A DNA stretch of 64,000 bases from Escherichia phage ESCO5, in sequence record NC_047776.2; one strand, given 5' to 3'. The position numbers and the translations under genes are program-made. Each line of letters opens with the position of its first letter. Position 1 is the first letter of the stretch. Below the pieces are notes generated by a model, which saw only the letters and a program-made list of their open reading frames with translations, was not told the origin of the DNA and ran no database searches. Shown piece after piece: positions 17,518 to 58,214 of the stretch.

Positions 17518-18318
17518 TTATTTGTTTAAATGGTCTTCAACCATTTTGATAAAGCCTTCATCACTGAAGACTGTCCCTGCTTTCTCTCGGTAGACAAGCA
17601 CTCCACGTTCTTCGTAGAGAGTTTGTTCTACAAAATTCAAACCTGGGTTAACTACAACCATCTTAACCCCAATATTCAGGGCAGGGAAAAGTTCCCAATT
17701 GAAGTTGATAACTTGATTAGAGCAGCCCACAACGATAACCATGTCTTGAGCAGTTAGCGTGTCGAGGATTTGGTACATGTCGGTGTAGAACGGAGCATTT
17801 TCACCAAAAAACACCACGTTAGGTTTCACGTACTTGTAATCATCTACATCAATAGCAGCATAACCTACATCTTTGATGATTCGATTGTCTACAATCACTT
17901 CAGGCAGGAAGCCGTGAACATGCAGAACATCTTCATGAACAACACCTGCTTGTTCCAGAAGATCATCTACGTTTGTTGTGATGTTGATAACACGTTCACA
18001 ACCGTACTCTTGGAACCATTCCGCGATCTGGTAATGCGCAGCGTTAGGAGACACGCTATCCATCTCTACGCGACGTTTATTGTAGAAGTCGTGAGTTTTA
18101 CGGTAGAGGTTGTATCCCTCTGCATCTAATCCGCCAACAGCCCCAGGAACACACTGTTCTTGTTGGTATCCAGCACGGAAGTTGAAAATGTCGCATACTT
18201 CAGAGAGGTCATATTCGTCCCACAAAGCTTTACCGCTTGTGGTATCGGTGCGGAAAGTACGTACACCACTATCGGCGCTTAGACCAGCGCCGCTGATCAC
18301 TATTAATCGTCTTGGCAT
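17518..18318 (-). CDS. Sir2-family NAD-dependent deacetylase / ADP-ribosyltransferase-like protein
   Basis: GAGLSADSGVRTFR, TTNVDDL, HG and FFGE motifs typical of sirtuins. Confidence 0.6.
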   Translation of the reverse strand: MPRRLIVISGAGLSADSGVRTFRTDTTSGKALWDEYDLSEVCDIFNFRAGYQQEQCVPGAVGGLDAEGYNLYRKTHDFYNKRRVEMDSVSPNAAHYQIAEWFQEYGCERVINITTNVDDLLEQAGVVHEDVLHVHGFLPEVIVDNRIIKDVGYAAIDVDDYKYVKPNVVFFGENAPFYTDMYQILDTLTAQDMVIVVGCSNQVINFNWELFPALNIGVKMVVVNPGLNFVEQTLYEERGVLVYREKAGTVFSDEGFIKMVEDHLNK

Positions 18319-20162: not shown

Positions 20163-20568
20163 TACCCCTCCATTCAAGACAAGCCATAACTTTACGCCAA
20201 TCACTTTCTGTAAGAAAAATCTCGTTTGCTTTCTTCCACAAATCTAGATCGTGAAGGGTTGGAATACGATATGTTAGTTCACAGAATCTATGTTCTTCTT
20301 CTGTAATATAACCAAAATGCAAAGCCACATCGTGAAACCAACACCAACCATGCATCTCTCGAACAACATGATCATGTTGAGACATTATTTTATGCCGTAA
20401 ACCTAACCAACAAGGAACAGATACTTTAGTAGTCTTTAATCTGTGATCAACAGTATTAGAGTATTCAATAATAGCTGTCAATTTCAATCGTGCTTTTTCT
20501 AAATCCTCATGCGTCACTTTGAAATAACTTTCTGAAAGATATCCACACATATTAATAACCTCCTTCAA
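20155..20568 (-). CDS. Hypothetical protein
   Basis: 137-aa ORF. Confidence 0.45.
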   Translation of the reverse strand: MKEVINMCGYLSESYFKVTHEDLEKARLKLTAIIEYSNTVDHRLKTTKVSVPCWLGLRHKIMSQHDHVVREMHGWCWFHDVALHFGYITEEEHRFCELTYRIPTLHDLDLWKKANEIFLTESDWRKVMACLEWRGNE

Positions 20569-21493
20569 AAGGCTTAACTACATGTTGATTAGCTTTAAAA
20601 CGTTCAACATAGTCGTTTTCACCCATGTTTTCATATAGCTTAATAACAACATAAAAGTTTTCCCAAGCATATTCCCTAAACCAACCACTAGTGATGGATG
20701 TGCAGACTTTAGATAAAGCCATTATAAAACTTTGCTTAGGGGTTGGACCTCCGATCTCTCCACCGAAAGGAATTTGTGAACGTTCCAAAGCCAAAACACA
20801 CGCTTCTTCATAAACACCTAACAGGCGCACATGTTTTGGTTGAGCAAAAAACTTTTCTTTGCTGGTCATAACTTCACTTCCATCTTTCATATAAGATTTA
20901 TATGCTGGAGCATCCATTACTGCGATTGCTTCATGAATAGAGTCATGATCATAAACATACGGAACCTCATCACCTTTAAAGAAATCTTTACTTCTCACGT
21001 TTAAGTTTGGATGAGAGTAAGTGTATGTTTCTTTCTCACGCAACTCATAAACACTCTTAAAATTTTCTGGGATCTTTGCGCCTAGTGATCGCATGAAATG
21101 AATATCTTTCATAGTTTTAAAGAAGTGAGGACTATCCTTTTTAAAACGATGACTCATTTTAAGAAGGTAGAGCACATCTAAAGGAGCAACAACGTGTCCA
21201 GCGTAAGTTCGACGAATATCATCAGAGTCTTCACAATAACTAATCAAAGCTTCTGTGCTATCTCCTTGAGAAGCAATATCGTATTCCAAATGTGCACCAG
21301 CTATCATTTTGACATGGCCCTTGTTCCCTTTACGCTCTACAAGTTCAACAAACTCATCTTGAGAGAACATTTTTGATAATTTTTCCCATTCTTGTTCTGT
21401 ACAGAGGTAATCTAAATCTACACAAGGGCGATACAAGTCTTTTCCCATATCCATAGCATGAATTTGTAATGCACGGCTACCGATTAACACCAT
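20552..21493 (-). CDS. Hypothetical protein (313 aa)
   Basis: ORF; weak GS...DLD pattern only, no confident family assignment. Confidence 0.5.
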   Translation of the reverse strand: MVLIGSRALQIHAMDMGKDLYRPCVDLDYLCTEQEWEKLSKMFSQDEFVELVERKGNKGHVKMIAGAHLEYDIASQGDSTEALISYCEDSDDIRRTYAGHVVAPLDVLYLLKMSHRFKKDSPHFFKTMKDIHFMRSLGAKIPENFKSVYELREKETYTYSHPNLNVRSKDFFKGDEVPYVYDHDSIHEAIAVMDAPAYKSYMKDGSEVMTSKEKFFAQPKHVRLLGVYEEACVLALERSQIPFGGEIGGPTPKQSFIMALSKVCTSITSGWFREYAWENFYVVIKLYENMGENDYVERFKANQHVVKPFEGGY

Positions 21494-23905: not shown

Positions 23906-24214
23906 TCAACAAGTAATTTCAAAAGGTGTATACGGTTCCGTATTTCTCATGATCCAAGGACTGCTAGGATTGCTCGGATCATAAGGACCAAAAGGTTTTA
24001 TGGTCGGTTGTGTTTCTTTCTTCTGAATCTCTTCAAAAATACGACGAAGTTCAGAATATTCTTGATCCACCATAAGATTCGGTGCATCTGATTCTACAGC
24101 TTGCAGGTTATCTTCCTTAAGAACAATCTCACGAACAAGATTAACATCTTCTGTTTCTAAGATAACTTCTTTACGGATATTACCTACACTTTGAATAATT
24201 GTAATCTTATACAT
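23906..24214 (-). CDS. Hypothetical protein
   Basis: 102-aa ORF. Confidence 0.45.
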   Translation of the reverse strand: MYKITIIQSVGNIRKEVILETEDVNLVREIVLKEDNLQAVESDAPNLMVDQEYSELRRIFEEIQKKETQPTIKPFGPYDPSNPSSPWIMRNTEPYTPFEITC

Positions 24215-24957
24215 TAATCCTCCTCAAGAGTTGAATAAAATTGAAGACCACCGTCCATATCGAAATAAGCAAATGTTAAGTTATTATTGAACACAGATCC
24301 AGTATCCATATAAACACGATTCGCATTGATAATAGGTGTTTTTACATAAGAGTGTCCATGAAACACATAATCCACACCCATCACAACAGGAAGTTTCATT
24401 CCCTCTTTAGCACAGTCTACCATATCTCTGTCCCACATAAGTGCTTCAGCAAAACGGTTTTCCTGTGTTTTTGTCATCTTCGAAATGTATTCTGGAATAT
24501 CTGTTACAGGGAGATATTCCAAAGAAGATGGATACCCACCATGAATAAACGCAAGTTTCATGCCTCTGTAGTTAACAATGAGAACAACAGGTAAATCTTC
24601 TGTCATCATTGCTAAGGCTGTAGCTCCTTCTTCACCACATTCTTCAAAGACCGTATATCCTCCATTTTGATACCAACACTCGTAGTAGCTACGATCTCCT
24701 TCCAGCATACCTTTAATCATCATGTCTTCATGATTGCCACGAATAGCGTAGCGATTGTGTTTACGAGTAAATTCTAAAACACAACGAAAGTTTTGCTTTC
24801 CACGGTCAGTAAGATCTCCTAGAGATACAACCACATCTGTATCTCGGATACCTAACTTTGCCTTTCCTTTTTCATACAAATTATAACAACCGTGTAGATC
24901 TCCAATTATAAAAAGATCTTGATCGCTTTTAACAGTAATTTCTCTGTGTATGATCAC
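24214..24957 (-). CDS. Metallophosphoesterase (Ser/Thr protein phosphatase family)
   Basis: GDLHGCY and GNHE motifs of calcineurin-like phosphoesterases. Confidence 0.7.
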   Translation of the reverse strand: MIIHREITVKSDQDLFIIGDLHGCYNLYEKGKAKLGIRDTDVVVSLGDLTDRGKQNFRCVLEFTRKHNRYAIRGNHEDMMIKGMLEGDRSYYECWYQNGGYTVFEECGEEGATALAMMTEDLPVVLIVNYRGMKLAFIHGGYPSSLEYLPVTDIPEYISKMTKTQENRFAEALMWDRDMVDCAKEGMKLPVVMGVDYVFHGHSYVKTPIINANRVYMDTGSVFNNNLTFAYFDMDGGLQFYSTLEED

Positions 24958-46162: not shown

Positions 46163-46888
46163 TTACTTGTTAATAATGGCTGCAATGTTAGGTTCAATGA
46201 AACCTGACCACTTCATGATCTTACCTTTATCATCAAAGAACACATACACTTTCTGTTTTTCATTATAAACAGCATGAACACCAGTGTATGCCCCTTCTGG
46301 ACGATTGGCATTTCGTTCTTCAATTGCAGCGCATTCTTGTGCAATGGCTGAATCGATATCCGAAGTTTTCCAAGTTTTCAGCAACTGTTGTTTAGTTGGA
46401 TACTTGGAATCATTACTTTTCAATACCTCTTTAATAACTTTCTTTTCTGGATATTTTGAACGGATTAGAGTGTCACGAGACATACGCATAATACCAGCAG
46501 CCATTAGTGCCATTTGAACTGGCTCTGTAAATGTTTGTTCCAAAGCATCAAAATCAGTATACACAGTTGGAGTAAAAACATCGCCTACAGCATAGTCCAA
46601 GAAATTCATCGTATGTTCTTCACCAAAGAACATGTAGGTCAGATAACTGGATACTACAAAAATATCCGCTGCTGCATCCAATAGTTCTACATGATCGTTT
46701 ACTTTCGCGGCTGTTTCATACTCTTTAAGCTCTTCACGAACGAATCCGATTTGGGACATAAATAGCTCTTGAGTGAATTCAGGTTGTTCACCACCCCGTG
46801 CTTTAGCATTCCAATCAATCACGTGCTTCGCTGCATTTTTGAAAAATTCAGTATCGAACTTAATATCTTTAAAAAAATTCTCGATCAT
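46163..46888 (-). CDS. MazG-like all-alpha nucleoside triphosphate pyrophosphohydrolase
   Basis: EELKEYETAAKVNDHVELLDAAADIF (E..E...E..D metal-binding pattern). Confidence 0.5.
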   Translation of the reverse strand: MIENFFKDIKFDTEFFKNAAKHVIDWNAKARGGEQPEFTQELFMSQIGFVREELKEYETAAKVNDHVELLDAAADIFVVSSYLTYMFFGEEHTMNFLDYAVGDVFTPTVYTDFDALEQTFTEPVQMALMAAGIMRMSRDTLIRSKYPEKKVIKEVLKSNDSKYPTKQQLLKTWKTSDIDSAIAQECAAIEERNANRPEGAYTGVHAVYNEKQKVYVFFDDKGKIMKWSGFIEPNIAAIINK

Positions 46889-47280: not shown

Positions 47281-48408
47281 TTACTCTGCTGGTTCCCAAG
47301 TGCCTGGGATCATTTCTCGAATACGAACACCAACAGGTTTTGTTGGAATACCTTCATCTGAAAATTCTTCATACTCTATTTCAACGAACTGATTAATCAA
47401 GGTAGAAGCATTCTCTGCTTTACGATAATTGATAGTCTCATGAGCATCTTTACGCATTAAGAATTCGACTACTTTACCATTTTCCATCTCACCTGTCAAC
47501 ACTCCATCGCCATTTTTATCGCTTTTTGAATTTGTTACTTTAACTTCAAGGGTGTGGCGAGGCTTACGTTTAATAACGTCATAAGAACGTTTATCAAATT
47601 CGTAAACTCCGTGAGCATTACGATATACTACACCTTCAGCTTTCTCAAGTAAAGCTTTTTCATAGAAAGCGTCAAACTGCTCTTGGTTTTCAATATACTC
47701 TGTATGAACTACACAAATAAGCTCGTCAAGACCATAATCTTCAACTACTGCCTTAAGAGCAGCAAGAGCATCAACACGTTTTTCAAACGGTAGACCTGGA
47801 ACTGGAATATCGTATACGTAATAATTCAGCAAAGGTGTATTTGCATTATGCTTCTTCCAAGCACTGTTAATTTGTTGCAGACTAAGGACACCTAACCCAG
47901 CAAACACTTCACCATCAAGAGGATGACCAACAACTTCACTAATAAAGTTTGGAATACCTTTCCAATGAGGTGGCAGGTTATACACTTCCCCAGCTTTTGA
48001 TAAACACTCCCCTTTCATGTTAATCATAGAACGTAACCCGTTCAGTTTGTATTGTGCATAACCAGGGAACACAACCCTTTCAGGATAATCTTTATAATCC
48101 TGGCATTTCATTGGTGTGGAAGGAACATGGTTTTCAGCTTCTTCTTTTGTTTTATAATAGCCATTCTTTAACTGTTTTGTCCATTTGGCAAAAGCTTCAA
48201 GTTCAGCTTGTTCTTCCGGTGTTGTTTCATTGGAACGACCAATGTTTTTTGCTTCTGCTGTATAAGATTTTTCTGTGATCTTTCCACCTACTCTTCCATG
48301 AGCTACAGTAACAACTGCACCATCTGTATATACTGTCCACTGTTTAAGTTTTCCTTTTGAATCTTTACCATACAGCGTTTGATTTGTTTGTTGCATTAGT
48401 CCTCCCAT
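47281..48408 (-). CDS. ATP-dependent polynucleotide ligase (nucleotidyltransferase superfamily; DNA or RNA ligase)
   Basis: Motif I variant KLNGLR, motif III LDGEVF, motif IV EGVVYRN, motif V VIKRKP. Confidence 0.6.
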   Translation of the reverse strand: MGGLMQQTNQTLYGKDSKGKLKQWTVYTDGAVVTVAHGRVGGKITEKSYTAEAKNIGRSNETTPEEQAELEAFAKWTKQLKNGYYKTKEEAENHVPSTPMKCQDYKDYPERVVFPGYAQYKLNGLRSMINMKGECLSKAGEVYNLPPHWKGIPNFISEVVGHPLDGEVFAGLGVLSLQQINSAWKKHNANTPLLNYYVYDIPVPGLPFEKRVDALAALKAVVEDYGLDELICVVHTEYIENQEQFDAFYEKALLEKAEGVVYRNAHGVYEFDKRSYDVIKRKPRHTLEVKVTNSKSDKNGDGVLTGEMENGKVVEFLMRKDAHETINYRKAENASTLINQFVEIEYEEFSDEGIPTKPVGVRIREMIPGTWEPAE

Positions 48409-48617
48409 TTAAAAACTGAAATTTTCAATCTGTTACACACTTCATCCAAATCTGCGTCGAGTAACGTTGTAGATGTTGCCAACATATAATCAATGCTTGT
48501 GAAACCTTGCCCTTTGGCATAGTCAAGCATATCTTCATACATATCTTCAAGATCACCGTCATCAAAAGTAGCTAGAAAATCCTCGTCTCCGCTACGAACA
48601 TAAAATGCAGTACTCAT
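48396..48617 (-). CDS. Hypothetical acidic protein
   Basis: 73-aa ORF. Confidence 0.4.
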   Translation of the reverse strand: MSTAFYVRSGDEDFLATFDDGDLEDMYEDMLDYAKGQGFTSIDYMLATSTTLLDADLDEVCNRLKISVFKWED

Positions 48618-48805
48618 TCTTCTTCATCCCAAGATTCAAAAGCACAACAATCATCGGTTTCTATAATACCAACACGTCCGCAGGTATTGCAAGTGATTTT
48701 ATCCCCGTAGAATAAATAATTTTTATCACCCTCTGTGTTTACAGTTATGTCATTACTACCACAAGGGCAAGTCAGCCAACCAACAACAACGATATCTTTT
48801 TTCAT
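48614..48805 (-). CDS. Zinc-ribbon protein
   Basis: CPCGS...CNTCG. Confidence 0.4.
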   Translation of the reverse strand: MKKDIVVVGWLTCPCGSNDITVNTEGDKNYLFYGDKITCNTCGRVGIIETDDCCAFESWDEEE

Positions 48806-48814
48806 AATCCCTCC

Positions 48815-49141
48815 TTAAGCGTTCAGTTCGTTGTTGAGTTCGTAAATCTCTTCTTGAAGAGCATCAATCTCTTCCTCCAAACGGGAGATCTCTTCTTTTA
48901 GATATACCATTTCGGACTCTTTCTCTTCTAATTCATTTTCAAATTTTACTTTATTCGCCTCATTTTCATAATGCAGTTCAGCGTAATCATCACGCATTTG
49001 TTCAATAAGATGAATCAGAGACAAGATATAATTGTCTCCCGTTTCATCACGCCACTCTTCACCGTGACGGAGAACGGTAATTCGTCCAGTATCTTCATCT
49101 AAAATTGTCTCATATTTACGATCATCTGTATAAATCTGCAT
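48815..49141 (-). CDS. Coiled-coil protein
   Basis: Glu/Leu-rich heptad-like C-terminus. Confidence 0.45.
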   Translation of the reverse strand: MQIYTDDRKYETILDEDTGRITVLRHGEEWRDETGDNYILSLIHLIEQMRDDYAELHYENEANKVKFENELEEKESEMVYLKEEISRLEEEIDALQEEIYELNNELNA

Positions 49142-49150
49142 TATTTCTCC

Positions 49151-49555
49151 TTATTGAAGTTTAAGTGAACCACGAAGACGTTTCTCTTGCTGATCACGGA
49201 TATATTGTGGAACCTCGTGAATTGAATCATTACCGTGCCTATTTTCAACAATTAAAGAGATAACTTGATAACCAAACTCTTCAGCAAGAGCTAGATAAGG
49301 TTTAAGTTCTTTCTCTGTGGTTGAAGTATTAGAAACAATAATCTTGTTAAGATTAGATGCCATAGCATCACGAACAATACCCTGACACCATGCGTGTGCT
49401 TTACCTACATTTTCTGGCTTCCAATCGTAAACACCACTCTCTGTGTAATGATATTGATCTGCCTCACAGATAGGCCAATAACCTTCAGAAATAATTTCTG
49501 CTACTGTAGATTTACCAGCACCTGAAACGCCACGTAAAATGATAAGTTGTTTCAT
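49151..49555 (-). CDS. Polynucleotide 5'-kinase-like P-loop kinase (T4 Pnk kinase-domain type, kinase only)
   Basis: LRGVSGAGKSTVA Walker A and overall resemblance to the T4 Pnkp N-terminal kinase domain; 134 aa, no phosphatase domain. Confidence 0.6.
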   Translation of the reverse strand: MKQLIILRGVSGAGKSTVAEIISEGYWPICEADQYHYTESGVYDWKPENVGKAHAWCQGIVRDAMASNLNKIIVSNTSTTEKELKPYLALAEEFGYQVISLIVENRHGNDSIHEVPQYIRDQQEKRLRGSLKLQ

Positions 49556-50488
49556 TTATCCTCCAAAAAAGTTTTCGATTTTTTCACGTCGCTCTTGCTG
49601 ATTTAAAGCAGCCCATTGAGTCTTCGTAAAATTATTTCGAATCCATTCTAACAAAGCGTAATATTCTTCGTCAACAATTTGTTTGGCATTTTTCGGATTA
49701 TCCCAAATCAGATCCCACTTTTTATCTCCACCGCGCATAAGAAACTTCTTAGTAAGATAGTGTGGTGATTTAATTTTTAAAAGTAAGTTGAACGGATAGT
49801 TTGTTTCACGAACTACAAACCCTTCGTGTTTACAATGTTTAGACATTTCAACAACATCTGAAAACTTAACCATTGGATAAACTTCAGGACGCTTAAATTT
49901 GGTGACAGAAGCAATTCCATCAAGAGCACCTTCAGGTAACATAAAACTTGTCCCATCAGGATTTTGAATTCTGGCACCAATTAAGTATGCACCTGGTTCT
50001 TCTTCGACAATATGCGGATCAGAAGGATCACAGATTTCAAAAAGGAAAGTTGCTTTTGCACTCTCTGTCCATTTGATGAAATGTTCTATGTCATCACACT
50101 CTGAAACAATACGATTCTTTGCAATACTTGCAAAATCTGATTCAAGGCTTCCTGTTGTCGATACAATAAGTTGACCTTTATATACACCTACAGAGGCCAT
50201 AAAACCATTTACTTTACGAACCACATCTACAAGTTCATCCAATGGTAGATCTGTGCCATTCTCAAAACGATTAAAAATCTTAGTGAAAGGCCAAATAACA
50301 ACATTGTCATCAGCATCAACAACGATTCCGCGACATTCTAGAAGACGAGAATCAATGCTCCATAAGTTATCCCAGAAAACTTTGTTCTTATACTTAAGAA
50401 CAGATAGACCAGAATACTCTCCTTCTTTATATGTTTTCTTATGAACTAAACCTTTTTCAACCAAATCGTCGCAATTAAATTTAGTCAC
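49556..50488 (-). CDS. RNA ligase, T4 Rnl1-like
   Basis: LLECRGIVV matches T4 Rnl1 LECRGIMF; motif I variant RKVNG; SLESDFAS region. Confidence 0.6.
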   Translation of the reverse strand: MTKFNCDDLVEKGLVHKKTYKEGEYSGLSVLKYKNKVFWDNLWSIDSRLLECRGIVVDADDNVVIWPFTKIFNRFENGTDLPLDELVDVVRKVNGFMASVGVYKGQLIVSTTGSLESDFASIAKNRIVSECDDIEHFIKWTESAKATFLFEICDPSDPHIVEEEPGAYLIGARIQNPDGTSFMLPEGALDGIASVTKFKRPEVYPMVKFSDVVEMSKHCKHEGFVVRETNYPFNLLLKIKSPHYLTKKFLMRGGDKKWDLIWDNPKNAKQIVDEEYYALLEWIRNNFTKTQWAALNQQERREKIENFFGG

Positions 50489-50489
50489 A

Positions 50490-51041
50490 TTACTCTCCTT
50501 TGATTATTTTGTGATGGTCTACAGTCACGATATCTCGTTTACTCATCATAGAAATTATCTCATCAAAATGCAAGATTTTTCCGTGTGCATCCCAACCCAC
50601 ATCTAACATTTTACCATAAGCTTCATCAGGGAAAGATCCGTGGGAATGCCCGTGTAGCATGATTGATCCACGACCTTGTTTATTCCAGGAGGCCATAGGG
50701 TAATGACTTAAGACGAAGAACAGCTTCTGATATTTCACTTCGTCATAATACACCACTTCACCATACTCTGCAAGCACTTCTCGGTGTTTGCTGTAGTCAT
50801 GGTTCCCAACACAGTAGGTGATATCTCCTTGGAGACGAGAAGCAATTTTACGGGTATCTTCTTCAGTTCCGAAACAGAAGTCGCCCAAATGCCACATCTT
50901 AACACCAGGAGTAGTAGCACATTTGTTCCATGCTTCGATCAAGGCTTCTGTCATGTGGTCCATATCTTCCCACGGACGATATTCAGGAGCAAACTCTCGA
51001 ATACGTTTATGCATAAAATGCAAATCGCTTGTAATAAACAT
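50490..51041 (-). CDS. Metallophosphoesterase (calcineurin-like)
   Basis: SDLHF, GDF and GNHD metal-binding motifs. Confidence 0.65.
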   Translation of the reverse strand: MFITSDLHFMHKRIREFAPEYRPWEDMDHMTEALIEAWNKCATTPGVKMWHLGDFCFGTEEDTRKIASRLQGDITYCVGNHDYSKHREVLAEYGEVVYYDEVKYQKLFFVLSHYPMASWNKQGRGSIMLHGHSHGSFPDEAYGKMLDVGWDAHGKILHFDEIISMMSKRDIVTVDHHKIIKGE

Positions 51042-51397
51042 TAGTATAATCCCTCGCTAAATAATTCATGGTCGTGACCATTACGCTCATGGTCGATCTG
51101 GTCAGCATTTTCCGCGATGATGTAAGCATCCGCACGACTCCACCAATTGTAATACTGATCGATAAAGCCTTGATTATCTGGTGTGCACAAAGTTTTGTTG
51201 ATTACACCTGCTTCTTTCAACACGTTTAACTGTGCATATAGTACAGGATTTGCATGTCGAACACAAGGAATAATTAACTCTTCACCATTATTCAAAATAT
51301 ACTTATTTGCAGCACAGACGATAACACGTTGCGCATAATGACCCTCACCCATCCAGGTAAGAGGTTGGTAACAAATATTGTTTTCAATACCACTCAT
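51041..51397 (-). CDS. Hypothetical protein
   Basis: 118-aa ORF with SD GAGGA. Confidence 0.45.
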   Translation of the reverse strand: MSGIENNICYQPLTWMGEGHYAQRVIVCAANKYILNNGEELIIPCVRHANPVLYAQLNVLKEAGVINKTLCTPDNQGFIDQYYNWWSRADAYIIAENADQIDHERNGHDHELFSEGLY

Positions 51398-51556: not shown

Positions 51557-51901
51557 TTAGTAGTGCACACGAATCATTTTAATACCATAACGCAGCATAG
51601 ATTCTTTTGCAAGCATGAATTTATCCCCAGCGGCGGGATTAGAAGTATGCACGAAAATGGTGGGTGAACCAAAGCAAGGTTTACCAAACGCCAGAAGTTC
51701 TTCCAGGTACAGGAAAACATCATACCCATCTTGGTCTGACTCCATACCTAAATCATTGTCAAAAGACCACTCGGTTACTCTTCGATACAGTTTAGCAGGA
51801 TCGTTGAGAAAGGCCATAGCTTCTTGTGACGTTTTAAACCAAATTGCATCCTCCTGTCCATAGTCGGCTGGGTTCCGCATATCATCTATCCAAACTTTCA
51901 T
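51557..51901 (-). CDS. Hypothetical protein
   Basis: 114-aa ORF. Confidence 0.45.
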   Translation of the reverse strand: MKVWIDDMRNPADYGQEDAIWFKTSQEAMAFLNDPAKLYRRVTEWSFDNDLGMESDQDGYDVFLYLEELLAFGKPCFGSPTIFVHTSNPAAGDKFMLAKESMLRYGIKMIRVHY

Positions 51902-52764: not shown

Positions 52765-53042
52765 TTTGCATTCCTCTTGTTGTTGATAACATCCATAGCA
52801 GTATATGGTTTATTAGTGCCATGATACTCCAGAATCATTGGAGATCCTTCTTGCACTACTTCAAAGATACCATAAACAGAACTTTCAGCAAATACCATTT
52901 GCTTCGTACCTTCATCGTTTACAACGAGAGAAAACTTCTTGCCTGTCCCGTTGAGGATCTCGTATTTCTTGCCAGCCGTGAATAATCCAGAGTACCACTC
53001 ATTATCTGTTGCTTTTACACACTTCAGGAAAGTCTTGATCAT
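52761..53042 (-). CDS. Hypothetical protein
   Basis: 93-aa ORF. Confidence 0.4.
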   Translation of the reverse strand: MIKTFLKCVKATDNEWYSGLFTAGKKYEILNGTGKKFSLVVNDEGTKQMVFAESSVYGIFEVVQEGSPMILEYHGTNKPYTAMDVINNKRNAK

Positions 53043-53607
53043 TTCTTTTTATCTCCTCTTTTAATCTATCTACTATACGAACATCATAGACGCCCTCTGT
53101 ATACATGTCAATAACTTCTTCAAGATAAACTTTTTTAGCTTTTCTGTAAGCTTCTTTTGCTGCCTCTTCTGTAGAAAAACTTCCAAGATAGAAGCCCTTA
53201 CCGAACTTACGGATGCTCGCTTGGTAGACCTTATCTCTCTTGTGATATGTAACACCCCTATAAGATGTCGAACCCATAAGTGCAAAATTCACATACTCTG
53301 GTATAAAGACACACGTGCTTGGTGAATAAACTTTAGAATCGGAAAGAAAATCCTTATCTAAAACTTTACCTTCCCAAGATTGACTCTCCATCCAGTTTTT
53401 GAAGTTAGAGAAGACCAACCATTCATCACAAACTTGAGAATTTTTGTATGCTGGCATCCTTGCCAACTGCTTCTCACAGTAACACCTACGCAACATATCC
53501 GTCCATCTCTCGTAATAAGGGCATGTCTTCCTTTTACCATCTTCTCCCCAAAAAGTAACTGGAACTTTTGAATCATTTATTCCTTTTCCGAACACTAGTT
53601 TTTTCAT
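53002..53607 (-). CDS. Homing-endonuclease-like protein with AP2-type DNA-binding domain (paralog of 36064-36723)
   Basis: FYLGSFSTEEAAKEAY AP2-like motif; W..M..RC, CDEW..FSNF and LDKDFL motifs shared with the ORF at 36064. Confidence 0.55.
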   Translation of the reverse strand: MKKLVFGKGINDSKVPVTFWGEDGKRKTCPYYERWTDMLRRCYCEKQLARMPAYKNSQVCDEWLVFSNFKNWMESQSWEGKVLDKDFLSDSKVYSPSTCVFIPEYVNFALMGSTSYRGVTYHKRDKVYQASIRKFGKGFYLGSFSTEEAAKEAYRKAKKVYLEEVIDMYTEGVYDVRIVDRLKEEIKRNDQDFPEVCKSNR

Positions 53608-56192: not shown

Positions 56193-56267
56193 GGCCCTGT
56201 AGCTCAATGGGAGAGCTGTCGGCTCATAACCGATAGGTAGCTGGATCGAAACCAGCCAGGGCCACCA
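56193..56267 (+). tRNA. tRNA with CAU anticodon (Met or lysidine-modified Ile2 type)
   Basis: Hand-folded cloverleaf: acceptor GGCCCTG/CAGGGCC, anticodon loop CTCATAA, encoded CCA; resembles E. coli tRNA-Ile2. Confidence 0.7.
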
Positions 56268-56269
56268 AC

Positions 56270-56344
56270 GTCTTTATGGTGTAATGGATAGCACAGGAGT
56301 CTTCTAAACTCTTAGTCAAGGTTCGATTCCTTGTAAAGACACCA
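56270..56344 (+). tRNA. tRNA-Arg (anticodon TCT)
   Basis: Acceptor GTCTTTA/TAAAGAC, anticodon loop CTTCTAA, T-loop TTCGATT, encoded CCA. Confidence 0.7.
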
Positions 56345-56540
56345 GAACATTTTAACATGAATTAGCTCAAGTGATTTGAACCCACTACTGATCATGGTGG
56401 CAGAGAATGAGGCAAGTATGTCAGACATTATAAACAAAGGCCACGGTTATATTAGAAGACATAAATGCTCGAAGAGCACCGTTCGTGGAGAACGGGGGTT
56501 GGTGGAGTCACCATTCATGGTAAAATGTTTTAAAAAACTA

Positions 56541-56570
56541 TTGACAACAAACATTATTTTATGTTAGATT
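56541..56570 (+). promoter_or_regulatory. Sigma70-like promoter with extended -10 (TTGACA, 18 nt spacer, TGnTAGATT)
   Basis: Immediately upstream of tRNA-Ser at 56579. Confidence 0.45.
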
Positions 56571-56578
56571 ATAAGTAT

Positions 56579-56669
56579 GGAAGGGCAAATCGACGTGGCG
56601 ACGAAAACGGTCTTGAAAACCGCCGAGCTTGAAAGAGCCTTGGGAGTTCGACTCTCCCTCCTTCCGCCA
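56579..56669 (+). tRNA. tRNA-Ser (anticodon TGA), type II
   Basis: Anticodon arm CGGTCTTGAAAACCG matches E. coli tRNA-Ser(UGA); long variable arm; discriminator G; encoded CCA. Confidence 0.7.
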
Positions 56670-56674
56670 GATTA

Positions 56675-56760
56675 GGTAGATTGGTGAAATGGTAGCCACG
56701 ACAGTTTGCTAAACTGTAGTCGGAAACGGCGTGTAGGTTCGAGTCCTACATCTACCGCCA
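56675..56760 (+). tRNA. tRNA-Ser (anticodon GCT), type II
   Basis: Acceptor GGTAGAT/ATCTACC, anticodon stem-loop ACAGT-TTGCTAA-ACTGT, long variable arm, discriminator G. Confidence 0.7.
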
Positions 56761-56890
56761 AGTTCTTTTTAATGTAGCTTACTTTAGCAGAGTAAATCTT
56801 CGGCAAGTGGCGGTAACCACTTTACCGATACCTCATAGTTAGTGGTGCGAACACTGGCTATTTTAAAAAGAATTTAAATATTAGTATTTA

Positions 56891-56978
56891 GGTGAGTTAA
56901 TTCCGTAGGGGTAGCGGGGCAGACTGTAAATCTGTTATCATTGCGATTCGGGTGGTTCGACTCCATCACTCACCACCA
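56891..56978 (+). tRNA. tRNA-Tyr (anticodon GTA), type II
   Basis: Anticodon arm GCAGACTGTAAATCTG matches E. coli tRNA-Tyr; long variable arm; discriminator A. Confidence 0.7.
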
Positions 56979-56984
56979 AATTAA

Positions 56985-57070
56985 GATGAGTTGGCTGAAT
57001 GGTTTAAGCGGCGGACTGTTAATCCGTGTTCGAAAGAACAATATAGGTTCGAATCCTATACTCATCGCCA
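56985..57070 (+). tRNA. Type-II-shaped tRNA with GTT (Asn) anticodon and discriminator G
   Basis: Acceptor GATGAGT/ACTCATC, 3-bp D-stem, anticodon arm GCGGACTGTTAATCCGT as in E. coli tRNA-Asn, extra GTTC-GAAA-GAAC hairpin in the variable region, T-arm ATAGG-TTCGAAT-CCTAT. Confidence 0.55.
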
Positions 57071-57077
57071 GAATTAT

Positions 57078-57152
57078 GGACTTGTAGAGTTAAGGTAAAC
57101 CCCCAGTCGCCAATAGGCTTCTGGAATTGCAGGTATCGAATCCTGCCGAGTC
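57078..57152 (+). pseudogene. tRNA-like remnant with aberrant anticodon domain
   Basis: Acceptor-like GGACTTG/CGAGTCC and T-arm-like GCAGG-TATCGAAT-CCTGC (8-nt loop); no 7-nt anticodon loop could be folded. Confidence 0.3.
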
Positions 57153-57160
57153 CCAGCATT

Positions 57161-57235
57161 GCTCCTATAGTATAATGGCTATTACAACGGTTTTGTAATC
57201 CGTGGATCTCTGTTCGATTCAGTGTGGGAGCACCA
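57161..57235 (+). tRNA. tRNA-Thr (anticodon TGT)
   Basis: Acceptor GCTCCTA/TGGGAGC, anticodon loop TTTGTAA, T-loop TTCGATT, encoded CCA. Confidence 0.6.
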
Positions 57236-57508
57236 ACACAACATTAAGAGCACTGTGATTGATCGTCGTATCCTGTGCACAAGGTCTGCTCGAAAGACAG
57301 TGTTCTTAGTATTGTGTTGATCACAAAAAGAGTCACCCGAAACTTGACCGGAGTAGGGTTGGATGGGGCAAAATGAGAAGCGGCTCTCCCATCGACAGCA
57401 ACGAAGAATAATATTTGACTTTTGTTTTGTATTATTTTAAGTTAGCTTACCGAACGTAGGGCTAGTCACCCAACGGGATACTCGTCACTGTCCCACTCAA
57501 TAAAACTA

Positions 57509-57538
57509 TTGACAACCAATAGTAAAATGTAGTATAGT
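57509..57538 (+). promoter_or_regulatory. Sigma70-like promoter (TTGACA, 18 nt spacer, TATAGT)
   Basis: Consensus -35 and near-consensus -10 about 12 nt upstream of tRNA-Gly. Confidence 0.55.
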
Positions 57539-57549
57539 AAAGATGTAGG

Positions 57550-57623
57550 GCGTTCTTGGTGTAGCGGTAGCATTCCGTCCTTCCAAGTCGGCGGCACGAG
57601 TTCGATCCTCGTAGAACGCTCCA
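57550..57623 (+). tRNA. tRNA-Gly (anticodon TCC)
   Basis: Acceptor GCGTTCT/AGAACGC, anticodon loop CTTCCAA, T-arm ACGAG-TTCGATC-CTCGT, discriminator T, encoded CCA. Confidence 0.7.
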
Positions 57624-57721
57624 AATTATTTAATAAAGGGTTGCCAGAAAACTTTCTCTTTTACTCATGGTTTTCTCCTTCTCTCACACTTCTTCTGGTT
57701 GCCCTTCATTAAATGATTTAT

Positions 57722-57797
57722 TGGTTTGTAGTGTAGTCCGGTAGCACACGACACTTTGACTGTCGTAGGTTTGGTTCAAATCCAGACAGACCAGCCA
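57722..57797 (+). tRNA. tRNA-Gln (anticodon TTG)
   Basis: U1-A72 start and discriminator G as in E. coli tRNA-Gln; anticodon stem-loop CGACA-CTTTGAC-TGTCG; encoded CCA. Confidence 0.7.
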
Positions 57798-57890
57798 TAT
57801 AACAAAGGTGAGTCACTACCTTAAGTGTGAAGTTAAAAACGAGGAGCCGCCGAACACTTTCTTTTGCGGTGTACCTTTAGAATGTTATCA

Positions 57891-57975
57891 CGGGACGTAG
57901 CACAGCTTGGTAGTGCGCTCGCTTTGGGAGCGAGAGGTCGAGTGTTCGAATCACTCCGTCCCGACCAATTAAATG
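57891..57975 (+). tRNA. tRNA-Pro (anticodon TGG)
   Basis: Acceptor CGGGACG/CGTCCCG, D-stem GCAC/GTGC, anticodon stem-loop CTCGC-TTTGGGA-GCGAG, T-loop TTCGAAT, encoded CCA. Confidence 0.7.
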
Positions 57976-57981
57976 TTTCGT

Positions 57982-58057
57982 AGTTCAATGGTAGAACCCA
58001 CGACTGATAATCGTGAGACACAAGTTCGATTCTTGTCGAAACAACCAGTTTCCCGTT
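57982..58057 (+). tRNA. tRNA-Ile (anticodon GAT)
   Basis: Acceptor TGTTTCG/CGAAACA, D-stem GTTC/GAAC, anticodon stem-loop CACGA-CTGATAA-TCGTG, encoded CCA. Confidence 0.65.
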
Positions 58058-58059
58058 AG

Positions 58060-58129
58060 ACTTACAGGATAAGAGATCCACAATTTATTGTGACGCTGGT
58101 TCGAATCCAGCACGGGATACATAATAGCG
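58060..58129 (+). pseudogene. tRNA-like remnant with perfect T-arm but no foldable anticodon loop
   Basis: T-arm GCTGG-TTCGAAT-CCAGC and acceptor-like TTCCCGT/ACGGGAT; central hairpin CACAA-TTTA-TTGTG has a 4-nt loop; no CCA. Confidence 0.3.
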
Positions 58130-58135
58130 GGATAG

Positions 58136-58214
58136 AGGAGTCTGGTCGTCCTCGCCAGTTTCATATGCTGGAGATCATTGGTTCAAATCCAATTCCCGCC
58201 TCCAAATATCGCTT
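58136..58214 (+). tRNA. tRNA with CAT anticodon (Met type) and mismatched 1:72 pair
   Basis: Anticodon stem-loop CCAGT-TTCATAT-GCTGG, T-arm ATTGG-TTCAAAT-CCAAT, encoded CCA; A1 opposite C72. Confidence 0.6.

Follow-up and report, generated by a model that had tools for sequence, protein, structure and literature searches.

We found that the functional unit in this part of the Escherichia phage ESCO5 genome is a triad of genes, encoding a metallophosphoesterase (MPE), a short Rnl1-like RNA ligase and a 134-aa kinase, and not a set of four genes. The initial annotation had proposed a four-gene cassette that included a DNA ligase. The kinase, the RNA ligase and the MPE of that cassette are co-inherited in the 70 loci that we compared, but the DNA ligase is not a member and its position varies.

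The window that we analyzed is a stretch of 64,000 nucleotides from record NC_047776.2. The phage is a Phapecoctavirus (an E. coli myovirus) of the subfamily Stephanstirmvirinae, and the sequence of vB_EcoM_REC is 100% identical to the window. The four minus-strand open reading frames claimed initially were all present where they had been placed, although the start of the DNA ligase probably needs shifting, and Pfam and PHROG profile matches upheld their domain assignments (Table 1). The observation was confirmed and the interpretation of the cassette was partly supported. The list of four genes was incomplete, however, because the gene of a cREC (cyclic-phosphate-processing receiver-like) domain protein had been overlooked.

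Table 1. Features of the cassette and its surroundings in the window.
Feature	Coordinates	Strand	Basis
Sirtuin (SIR2), homologue of the rV5-type RNA-repair-associated sirtuin	17518..18318	-	SIR2 1.7e-20
MazG-like nucleotide pyrophosphohydrolase	46163..46888	-	PRA-PH 2.7e-6, phrog_671 5e-27
ATP-dependent DNA ligase	47281..48396	-	PF01068, phrog_114, NCBIfam DNA ligase
Predicted stand-alone polynucleotide 5'-OH kinase, 134 aa, without phosphatase domain	49151..49555	-	AAA_33, phrog_505, fold, linkage
Predicted short Rnl1-like ATP-dependent RNA ligase, 310 aa	49556..50488	-	PF09511, phrog_562, hhalign
Calcineurin-like MPE, predicted 2',3'-cyclic phosphodiesterase / 3'-phosphatase	50490..51041	-	PF00149, phrog_547, 1xm7
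PF26092 / T4_Y16D-family protein	51041..51397	-	phrog_839 4e-47
cREC domain protein	51557..51901	-	PF20274 3.9e-17
Array of 10 tRNA genes	56193..58204	+	ARAGORN

Linkage of the triad genes

Linkage was examined in 70 diverse phage loci carrying the RNA ligase, at 30-88% identity. The kinase was present in 65 of these loci and the MPE in 67, and the triad genes almost always shared a strand. The order was MPE, ligase, kinase in 33 loci and kinase, ligase, MPE in 27, with the ligase central in both mirror images. With two opposite gene orders, the linkage evidently outlasts rearrangement, and phages of Escherichia, Pseudomonas, Vibrio and Acinetobacter all keep it. In the window, the genes are packed tightly, with junctions that abut or overlap by 0-1 nt; in the 70 loci, no fusion among kinase, MPE and ligase was found. 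Kinase and ligase counts match almost genus by genus (621 and 686 phage genomes), and the gene set is widespread in phages. In the 70-locus comparison, the clustering of the three genes is far beyond chance. Sequence comparison supports the triad as a conserved, co-inherited module with the heal-and-seal logic of RNA repair.

Relatives and catalytic residues of the enzymes

The kinase had been described as resembling the kinase domain of Pnkp without its phosphatase domain, and both fold and profile agree. The protein matches the AAA_33 P-loop domain (3.5e-10) and the PNK family phrog_505 (1e-7), with a P-loop, GVSGAGKST, at 49531-49505. The folds nearest to its AF2 model (pLDDT 89) were the CthPnkp kinase and T4 Pnk (TM 0.76-0.79), with NMP and sugar kinases at TM 0.5-0.6. 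The top PDB profile matches were Pnkp1 (8e-7), CthPnkp (2e-5), the Mucorales RNA kinases (6e-5) and T4 Pnk (1e-4). Fold and profile thus support kinship with the Pnkp-type polynucleotide kinases, but without their phosphatase. The invariant D33 aligned with the general-base Asp of RDD/SSD and is a candidate for the general base. Counterparts of T4 Pnk Arg38 and Asp85 were not found in the kinase (variable H/F/L/W and Asn, respectively), suggesting that its substrate contacts are unlike those of T4 Pnk. This kinase is often annotated merely as an 'ATPase'.

The MPE, whose stop codon is 1 nt away from the start of the ligase, matches PF00149 Metallophos (3e-5, 24.9 bits against a cutoff of 21.5) and phrog_547 (6.5e-56). 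At each of its metal ligands (D6, H8, D54, N80, H81, H113, H132 and H134), 66-68 of 68 sequences have the same residue. The MPE profile matched 1xm7 at 1e-23, and neither λ-phosphatase nor CthPnkp appeared among its matches. By this profile comparison, the MPE is placed in the uncharacterised aq_1665 clade, not in the λ-phosphatase/CthPnkp clade. For an MPE with both RNA 2',3'-cyclic phosphodiesterase and phosphatase chemistry, CthPnkp and λ-phosphatase provide a precedent (PMC2190708). About 670 phage genomes that were absent from the ligase search results also have a member of the MPE family.

The RNA ligase begins with a GTG codon, and its stop abuts the kinase start. It matches the whole of the PF09511 RNA_lig_T4_1 model (8.7e-15) as well as phrog_562 (4.9e-70), and hhalign aligned its residues 47-265 with residues 48-266 of T4-type Rnl1 (97% probability, E 7e-11). 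A PDB search with the ligase profile retrieved only T4 Rnl1. The LECRGI motif reported initially was found as LLECRGIVV, aligned with ALECRGIMF of T4 Rnl1. Residues R53, K70, K92, N94, G95, E151, E222, G223, K238 and K240 are invariant in 71/71 family members, and F72 is F or Y across these 71. The essential residues of T4 Rnl1 are kept except for D101→N and K119→T. The hhalign alignment also showed that the ligase is without the greater part of the C-terminal domain, which gives T4 Rnl1 its tRNA specificity, and the ligase scored 24.8 bits against the NCBIfam RnlA equivalog, far under the cutoff of 242 bits. Because the C-terminal domain is mostly absent and the RnlA score is below cutoff, the tRNA anticodon loop is only a candidate target. 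PHROG and RefSeq label the protein 'RNA ligase and tail fiber protein attachment catalyst'.

Both ligases carry K-x-N-G as motif I, as the initial annotation had noted: K92-V-N-G at 50215-50204 in the RNA ligase and K-L-N-G at 48048-48037 in the DNA ligase. The variant had been called uncommon, which is true of the linked DNA ligase homologues (3/28, the other 25 having K-x-D-G) but not of the RNA ligase family, in which the Asn is invariant in 71/71 members. Fungal Trl1 normally has K-x-N-G as its motif I (PMC6379707), and KRNG stands at the aligned position in the ASFV DNA ligase. K-x-N-G is no shared oddity that ties the two ligases together.

The DNA ligase and other neighbours

The open reading frame of the DNA ligase (47281-48408) matches PF01068 (6e-9) and phrog_114 (2e-74), and its PDB relatives are DNA ligases (4d05, ASFV 6imj). 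The start is probably 48396 rather than 48408, because a GGAGGA Shine-Dalgarno sequence lies just upstream and that start and RBS are annotated in ESCO13. In 33 of the 70 loci, a DNA ligase lay no more than 10 kb from the RNA ligase, on either side and with gaps of 0 to 8 kb, and it directly adjoined the kinase in two of them (L040 and L043). The gene sits among replication and recombination genes, and in the close relative NC_048196 it is the sole full-length DNA ligase annotated. The variable position relative to the triad suggests that it is a neighbour, not a core member, and probably the phage's replicative enzyme.

Across 11 homologues, the cREC residues D6, D7, D48, D50, T86 and S87 vary little or not at all. 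The gene occurs in 341 phage records, all of enterobacterial phages; it lies between ligase and kinase in Klebsiella/Salmonella-type relatives and directly after the ligase in rV5-like phages. The domain has been predicted to open 2',3'-cyclic phosphates (PMC7824862, PMC9503650). cREC is a lineage-specific fourth component of the cassette. The Y16D-family gene, which overlaps the MPE start by 1 nt, is probably a passenger: all homologues of its product carry PF26092 (named T4_Y16D), but the gene was near the triad in just 3-4 of the 70 loci, and in distant phages it lies among unrelated early genes. The MazG-like gene, present in 13 of the 70 loci and always downstream on the same strand, is part of a conserved wider neighbourhood in enterobacterial phages, and MazG has been counted in the rV5/Mydo neighbourhood (PMC9503650). 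The sirtuin gene is unlinked here, 31 kb from the cassette; its product is 50% identical to the sirtuin of the rV5-like phage Bas53, whose gene directly follows cREC. The phage's own tRNA set, mentioned initially, was recovered as an array that is encoded on the other strand and lies roughly 4 kb upstream of the cassette's transcription block, and in Bas53 a tRNA array is likewise juxtaposed with the repair module.

Proposed RNA repair, alternative readings and known systems

We consider it reasonably probable that 49151-51041, together with cREC in this lineage, encodes a split heal-and-seal RNA repair system analogous to T4 Pnkp and Rnl1. We infer the enzymatic activities, the RNA substrate and a role in countering host defence; judged by sequence, the cassette most likely repairs tRNA, or other RNA, that has been cut. 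Cleavage would be the work of a host ribonuclease, in the typical case an anticodon nuclease or toxin that is metal-independent, and the MPE, aided or preceded by cREC, would open and remove the cyclic or 3' phosphate to leave a 3'-OH. The kinase would move an NTP phosphate onto the 5'-OH, with Asp33 as general base, and the ligase, adenylylated on Lys92, would activate the 5'-phosphate and seal the break. The idea of RNA repair is not new for this gene set: for rV5- and Mydo-like phages, the Aravind group has described what is essentially this neighbourhood and predicted this role in print (PMC9503650). No experimental paper on the cassette was found in the literature.

Iyer et al. proposed for the rV5/Mydo neighbourhood an NAD-dependent, Trl1-like logic (PMC9503650), which seems unlikely here. 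In such a pathway, cREC or the MPE would open the cyclic phosphate to give a 3'-OH/2'-phosphate end, the K-x-N-G ligase would join 2'-phosphate ends like the fungal and plant tRNA ligases, the sirtuin would strip the 2'-phosphate in the manner of KptA/Tpt1, and the MPE and MazG would process the ADP-ribose by-products. The phage encodes a matching sirtuin and cREC, a close relative has a NADAR gene, motif I is shared with Trl1-LIG, which needs a 2'-PO4 (PMC6379707), and the invariant basic K248 and R252 after motif V lie roughly at the position of the Trl1 RxxR. However, the ligase profile leads to T4 Rnl1 and not to Trl1, and the sirtuin is distant here, its family being also common in T5-like phages without the ligase. 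cREC is absent from most triad phages (Pseudomonas, Vibrio), suggesting that the core works without it.

It is less likely again that the kinase and the phosphoesterase heal 5'-OH/3'-phosphate nicks, made in DNA by host nucleases or phage DNA metabolism, for the nearby DNA ligase. T4 and mammalian PNKP act on DNA too, the cassette lies within a replication/recombination block (RdgC, exonucleases), and the 33 loci with a DNA ligase nearby have it on the same strand. Yet the constant gene between or beside the kinase and the MPE is the RNA ligase, which the kinase follows in its phyletic pattern, whereas the DNA ligase varies in position and distance, and over half of the loci have none; cREC, moreover, is known solely from RNA-repair and cyclic-phosphate contexts. 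We regard it as very improbable that mere synteny joins genes with unconnected roles, in which case the ligase would attach tail fibres, the kinase would phosphorylate nucleotides and the MPE would dephosphorylate proteins or nucleotides. Tail-fibre attachment is the second activity of T4 gp63, and the PHROG and RefSeq label of the ligase, the frequent 'ATPase' label of the kinase and the breadth of the MPE family relative to the ligase family would fit such a reading. Nevertheless, linkage across opposite gene orders and diverse phages is difficult to account for unless the genes share a function. The adenylyltransferase residues are invariant throughout, and a protein that served purely as a structural chaperone would not need them to be. 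The closest relatives of the kinase are polynucleotide, not nucleotide, kinases.

The split RNA repair system that we favour has likenesses to several known systems. Fungal Trl1 (LIG-KIN-CPD) also combines a ligase, a 5'-OH kinase and cyclic-phosphate processing, the activities predicted for the cassette; the two ligases share K-x-N-G, and Mucorales Trl1-type kinases are among the profile matches of our kinase. Trl1 differs in uniting three functions in one protein, which has a 2H-type CPD and a C-domain of its own, and Trl1-LIG was not retrieved from the PDB by the cassette ligase profile. The parallel with bacterial Pnkp drawn initially stands for the kinase, which in structure and in profile is matched best by the kinase domains of CthPnkp and Pnkp1. 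Bacterial Pnkp/Hen1 systems (Clostridium thermocellum Pnkp; Capnocytophaga Pnkp1/Rnl/Hen1) likewise join kinase, MPE and ligase, but the cassette places these predicted activities on separate polypeptides, its ligase is Rnl1-type and not Rnl4, its MPE corresponds only at superfamily level, and no Hen1 methyltransferase was seen in its neighbourhood.

T4 Pnkp and Rnl1, which counter the PrrC anticodon nuclease, are phage-encoded and follow the same heal-and-seal logic. T4 Rnl1 and the cassette ligase belong to one family by descent, and T4 Pnk shares its fold and general-base Asp with the cassette kinase. In T4, the kinase carries a fused HAD phosphatase that heals the 3' end, whereas the cassette has a separate MPE plus cREC; the cassette ligase lacks most of the C-terminal domain and departs from T4 Rnl1 in motif I and at K119 (Thr); and rnlA and pnk lie apart in T4-type genomes, unlike the three adjacent genes here. 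The gene families of the cassette match those of the sirtuin-centred predicted RNA-repair neighbourhood of rV5/Mydo (Iyer et al. 2022, Viruses 14:1977, section 3.7.3; PMC9503650), namely a T4-like ligase, cREC, nucleotide kinase, MazG and calcineurin-like phosphoesterase. Compared with their Bas53 counterparts, the window proteins show 30-54% identity, and both modules adjoin a tRNA array and a DNA ligase. The cassette differs in that it is all on one strand in the order cREC-Y16D-MPE-Rnl-kinase, with the sirtuin moved away and a T4_Y16D-family gene inserted, and in that its host phage belongs to the Stephanstirmvirinae rather than the Vequintavirinae.

Gene content and conservation of the cassette

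Over the 3.8-kb region that holds the cassette, the match to Escherichia phage vB_EcoM_REC was complete (100% identity), and 27 phage records matched at 99% or more, among them the relatives ESCO13 and Schickermooser (NC_048196.1) of the genus Phapecoctavirus, Stephanstirmvirinae. The cassette lies inside a long minus-strand block of early/middle genes that, by the sign of the GC skew, begins near 54 kb and ends near 17.5 kb. The initial annotation had proposed a four-gene RNA-repair cassette comprising a DNA ligase, a polynucleotide kinase, an Rnl1-like RNA ligase and a calcineurin-like metallophosphoesterase (MPE). All four ORFs were present as described, Pfam/PHROG matches upheld each domain call, and translation placed KVNG, KLNG and the P-loop at the expected coordinates. 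The interpretation held in part: the module of kinase, RNA ligase and MPE stood, but its boundaries did not, since the DNA ligase has to be left out and a gene for a cyclic-phosphate-processing receiver-like domain (cREC) brought in. A promoter and terminator scan gave 36 promoter-like matches against 31.8 expected, which is background, and no operon was defined from them.

Features of the cassette region and of other loci in the window
Feature	Coordinates	Strand	Remarks
Sirtuin (SIR2)	17518-18318	-	E 1.7e-20; 31 kb from the cassette
DUF7277/DUF7275 protein	20552-21493	-	313 aa; DUF7277 E 1.6e-13, DUF7275 E 5.5e-75
Second MPE, λ-phosphatase (NinI) type	24214-24957	-	Unlinked; PF00149 E 2.7e-13; motifs GDLHG, GDLTDRG, GNHE
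DNA ligase	47281-48396		PF01068 36.3 bits (cutoff 26.2); phrog_114 2e-74
Three small ORFs	48396-49141	-	Between kinase and DNA ligase; kept only in the closest relatives (2/70 loci); 108-aa coiled-coil protein (phrog_18076); 63 aa, two CxxC pairs, zinc-ribbon-like; 73 aa, acidic
Polynucleotide kinase	49151-49555	-	134 aa
Rnl1-like RNA ligase	49556-50488	-	310 aa
MPE	50490-51041	-	183 aa
T4_Y16D-family gene	51041-51397		Conservation limited to close relatives
cREC	51557-51901		PF20274 E 3.9e-17, 63 bits (cutoff 27)
AP2-domain protein	53002-53607	-	201 aa; AP2 DNA-binding domain E 1.3e-7, slightly under the Pfam cutoff
Array of 10 tRNA genes	56193-58204		Divergent from the cassette block

We collected 70 viral-contig loci carrying relatives of the RNA ligase (30-88% identity), predicted their ORFs, and ran two search iterations with the window proteins as queries. 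The kinase was found in 65 of these loci and the MPE in 67, nearly always on the ligase strand and within 2 kb. The order was MPE, ligase, kinase in 33 loci and kinase, ligase, MPE in 27, with the ligase central in both, and no fusions among the three were seen in the 70 loci. That the genes stay linked despite rearrangement and a sequence divergence above 60% argues strongly for a shared function, and the proposal that kinase, MPE and RNA ligase form one linked unit was borne out. In isolated phages the kinase and ligase counts agreed closely from genus to genus: kinase/ligase record counts were 196/197 for Escherichia, 173/175 for Pseudomonas, 36/36 for Klebsiella, 24/24 for Acinetobacter and 13/13 for Aeromonas; the 686 phage genome records with the ligase family (about 300-320 aa) included a further 83 from Vibrio and 77 from Streptomyces, among others.

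About 23 'Campylobacter phage' records (host Campylobacter jejuni; MG065639, MG065644, MG065650, MG065654, MG065677 and MG065689 among them) correspond in the cassette region to E. coli Phapecoctavirus- or rV5-like genomes; over the cassette, Campylobacter phage B15 and the window share 99.8% identity. This suggests that the dataset contains mislabelled hosts or contaminating coliphages. Homologues of the AP2-domain protein turned up in 11 of the 70 loci; their place and strand differ from locus to locus, a pattern expected for a mobile homing-endonuclease-like gene. The N-terminal 'GSRAL...DLDYL' (GS...DxD-like) of the 313-aa ORF recalls Pol-beta-type nucleotidyltransferases; its assignment as RlaP, the RNA-ligase-associated nucleotidyltransferase, was rejected on its Pfam matches. 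A 198-aa 'nucleotidyltransferase' of Schickermooser had no Pfam match.

Predicted activities of the encoded proteins

The RNA ligase matched the Pfam model of T4 RNA ligase 1 over the model's full length (E 8.7e-15), and T4 Rnl1 alone was retrieved in its PDB profile search. Profile comparison with Tequatrovirus Rnl1 (97% probability, E 7e-11) aligned residues 47-265 with 48-266. Nucleotidyltransferase motifs I, III, IV and V were present with the catalytic lysine: K92, G95, E151, E222/G223 and K238/K240 correspond to T4 K99, G102, E159, E227/G228 and K240/K242, and none of them varies in the 71 sequences compared. The Rnl1-specific N-terminal sub-module that contacts ATP is present as well (R53, K70 and F72 for T4 R54, K75 and F77), R53 and K70 being invariant in the same set and F72 being F or Y. 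Two T4 residues are replaced in all 71 family members, D101 of motif I by Asn and K119 by Thr. The protein is predicted, from these matches, to be an Rnl1-type ligase that would be adenylylated on its lysine and would seal 3'-OH/5'-PO4 RNA ends.

The T4-type all-helical C-terminal domain (T4 aa 255-374) was not matched in these comparisons. Beyond the end of the alignment there are about 45 residues in the phage ligase versus about 108 in T4, and similarity ends soon after motif V, so that most of the T4 domain is missing or replaced. The score against the NCBIfam RnlA equivalog TIGR02308 was 24.8 versus a cutoff of 242. In T4 Rnl1 the C-terminal domain confers tRNA (anticodon-loop) specificity (PMC6379707).

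Searching the PDB with single sequences yielded next to nothing for the kinase and the MPE, and their assignments rest on profile searches. The kinase is one of a family of compact, stand-alone proteins (131-138 aa) and matched AAA_33 and, more weakly, a polynucleotide kinase PHROG. Its profile ranked Capnocytophaga Pnkp1 (8e-7), Clostridium thermocellum Pnkp (CthPnkp, 2e-5), Mucorales Trl1-type RNA kinases (6e-5 to 9e-5) and T4 Pnk (1e-4), with generic P-loop proteins all below them. An AlphaFold (AF2) model built on the 18-member alignment A1 (pLDDT 89) had its best solved-structure matches in Foldseek to the C. thermocellum Pnkp kinase and T4 Pnkp (TM 0.76-0.79), versus just 0.5-0.6 for nucleotide and sugar kinases. 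Invariant residues in A1 include R8, G12, G14, K15, D33, H36, N76, T77, E104, H107 and H113, of which H36, N76, E104 and H107 vary in the wider set of 66 sequences. D33 is invariant in 66/66 and aligns with the general-base Asp after strand 2 (T4 D35, Cth D38), its partners being the Asp of 'NRDDFR' in Pnkp1 and of 'SSDFCR' in Cth. From profile and model, the kinase is predicted to phosphorylate 5'-OH ends of RNA or DNA.

Two T4 positions were not found in the phage kinase. The Arg three residues after the general base (T4 R38, Cth R41) is H36, and family residues there vary (F28, H19, L10, W5); the Asp of the 'SDTN' motif (T4 D85, which contacts substrate and metal with R38) is N76, Asn in 60/66. 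Because neither position is conserved, the family counts as a divergent branch that may contact its substrate differently from T4 Pnk.

The MPE scored above the gathering cutoff of PF00149 and carries all the dinuclear-metal motifs (D-x-H, G-D, G-N-H, H and G-H-x-H). D6, H8, D54, N80, H81, H113, H132 and H134 are invariant in 66-68 of 68 homologues, and this conservation of the metal ligands makes it very likely that the MPE is an active enzyme. Its profile matched Aquifex aq_1665 (1xm7; E 1e-23), an uncharacterised structural-genomics protein, with weak matches to GpdQ (1e-3) and YfcE-type proteins; λ-phosphatase and CthPnkp chains were absent from the matches at E<=1. The family occurs in 1355 phage records, including Staphylococcus, Listeria, Enterococcus and Bacillus myoviruses that are absent from the ligase search results. 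A role in healing RNA 3' ends is proposed from genomic context and by analogy, since hydrolysis of RNA 2',3'-cyclic phosphates by MPEs has precedent (PMC2190708). The clade in which RNA 2',3'-cyclic phosphodiesterase activity has been demonstrated in vitro is the λ-phosphatase type, and the window encodes a second MPE of this type, unlinked to the cassette.

The cREC gene had been overlooked initially. Its acidic residues D6, D7, D48 and D50 are invariant among homologues, and its neighbours are RNA-repair genes, not histidine kinases: it stands between ligase and kinase in Klebsiella/Salmonella-type relatives and directly after the ligase in the rV5-like phage Bas53. It was found only in enterobacterial phages (341 records) and is therefore a lineage-specific addition to the triad. 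The Aravind group predicted a role for this receiver-like domain in opening cyclic phosphates; its known contexts are confined to RNA repair and ADP-ribose (PMC7824862, PMC9503650).

The DNA ligase and alternative readings

The DNA ligase gene most likely starts at 48396, not at 48408 as initially called, because a GGAGGA ribosome-binding site precedes this ATG, which overlaps the upstream stop (TAATG). PDB relatives of the product (4d05, 6imj, 6dt1, 8u6x) are all DNA ligases, and motif I K117 is invariant in 28/28 homologues. Its proposed membership in the cassette did not survive the neighbourhood comparison: it lies within 10 kb of the RNA ligase in just 33 of the 70 loci, on either side and at variable distance, and its neighbours are RdgC, exonuclease and polymerase-subunit genes. 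The best reading is that it serves the phage as its ordinary DNA ligase. Schickermooser has one annotated full-length DNA ligase; the other 'DNA ligase' label, on a 65-aa ORF (L080:15760-15957 of the NC_048196.1 RefSeq record), is certainly a mis-annotation.

Both ligases do carry K-x-N-G in motif I, as was claimed, but this does not link them meaningfully. Asn is found throughout the RNA ligase's family, whereas only 3 of the 28 linked DNA-ligase homologues, all from close relatives, have it and the remaining 25 have K-x-D-G. We therefore rejected the shared motif as a mark of common origin or cofactor. The ASFV DNA ligase aligns as KRNG, and Trl1-LIG is a well-studied KxNG precedent (PMC6379707).

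In the best-supported reading, which is probable though by no means secure, the separate genes of the cassette together encode a heal-and-seal pathway like that of T4. Ends with a 2',3'-cyclic phosphate or 3'-phosphate would be converted to 3'-OH by the MPE, alone or together with cREC, the kinase would supply the 5'-phosphate, and the Rnl1-like ligase would seal the break via a K92-AMP intermediate. Anticodon loops of tRNA are a plausible substrate, and the countering of anticodon nucleases a plausible role, because the tRNA array is adjacent, an idea weakened by the missing T4-type specificity domain of the ligase. With the DNA ligase so loosely placed, we regard healing of DNA ends for this neighbouring enzyme as quite improbable. 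Least probable of all are unrelated functions, including tail-fibre attachment in the manner of T4 gp63; the MPE family does occur in phages outside the ligase search results, but the persistent linkage of the triad argues for shared function.

A Trl1-like variant of the pathway, dependent on NAD and a sirtuin, is unlikely. The window sirtuin is 50% identical to the one within the RNA-repair neighbourhood of rV5-like phages, and only one gene follows it in the long minus-strand block; it is far more variable than the cassette among close relatives, reaching at least 99% identity in 1 record versus 27. A wider proposal, distinctly unlikely as a whole, is that the short K-x-N-G ligases of more than 680 phage genomes constitute an RNA-ligase clade of their own as Shuman uses the term, with an Rnl1-type adenylyltransferase and a short C-terminal module of their own, and that in enterobacterial phages cREC would leave a 2'-phosphate end, the ligase would seal, and the sirtuin would strip the 2'-phosphate. 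If true, viruses of bacteria would have a counterpart to the tRNA-splicing chemistry of eukaryotes, made from unrelated parts. Outside the window, NC_048196.1 carries a NADAR-domain gene (E 3e-35; L079:23124-23666), NADAR being part of the NAD/ADP-ribose network discussed for cREC and sirtuin, and a TerD/TelA/TerC-like cluster at about 108-116 kb (L078/L079).

Significance and relation to known RNA-repair systems

A large part of bacterial immunity consists of defences that cleave tRNA or other RNA (PrrC, RloC, PARIS, retron-associated nucleases, colicins and many toxin-antitoxin RNases). To our knowledge, T4 is essentially the sole phage with an experimentally shown RNA-repair counter-defence, which makes the cassette a good experimental target. 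More than 600 sequenced phages carry the triad, and some of them are candidates for therapy against E. coli, Klebsiella, Pseudomonas and Acinetobacter. A demonstration that it works, and on which RNAs, would account for part of the host range of such phages against RNase-based defences, reveal what the uncharacterised aq_1665-type phosphoesterases and cREC do, and perhaps supply new, compact reagents (RNA ligase and kinase).

The cassette is a previously predicted kind of phage RNA-repair system, and its genes were annotated beforehand. [quoted passage not shown] The window has homologues of every gene of that neighbourhood, 30-54% identical to those of Bas53, and several GenBank records already label the genes 'putative RNA ligase/RNA repair', 'polynucleotide kinase' or 'phosphoesterase'. 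Our literature search found no experimental study of the cassette.

The parallel drawn initially with bacterial Pnkp is sound for the kinase, whose best matches are CthPnkp and Pnkp1; for the phosphoesterase it extends no further than the superfamily, and the ligase is of Rnl1 type. Bacterial Pnkp is a single trifunctional polypeptide with a Hen1 partner, whereas the phage genes are separate and no Hen1 methyltransferase is annotated in the Schickermooser genome. The MPE domain of bacterial Pnkp is λ-phosphatase-like, unlike the triad MPE, which matches aq_1665 instead. T4, too, differs from the triad, in the enzyme that heals the 3' end.
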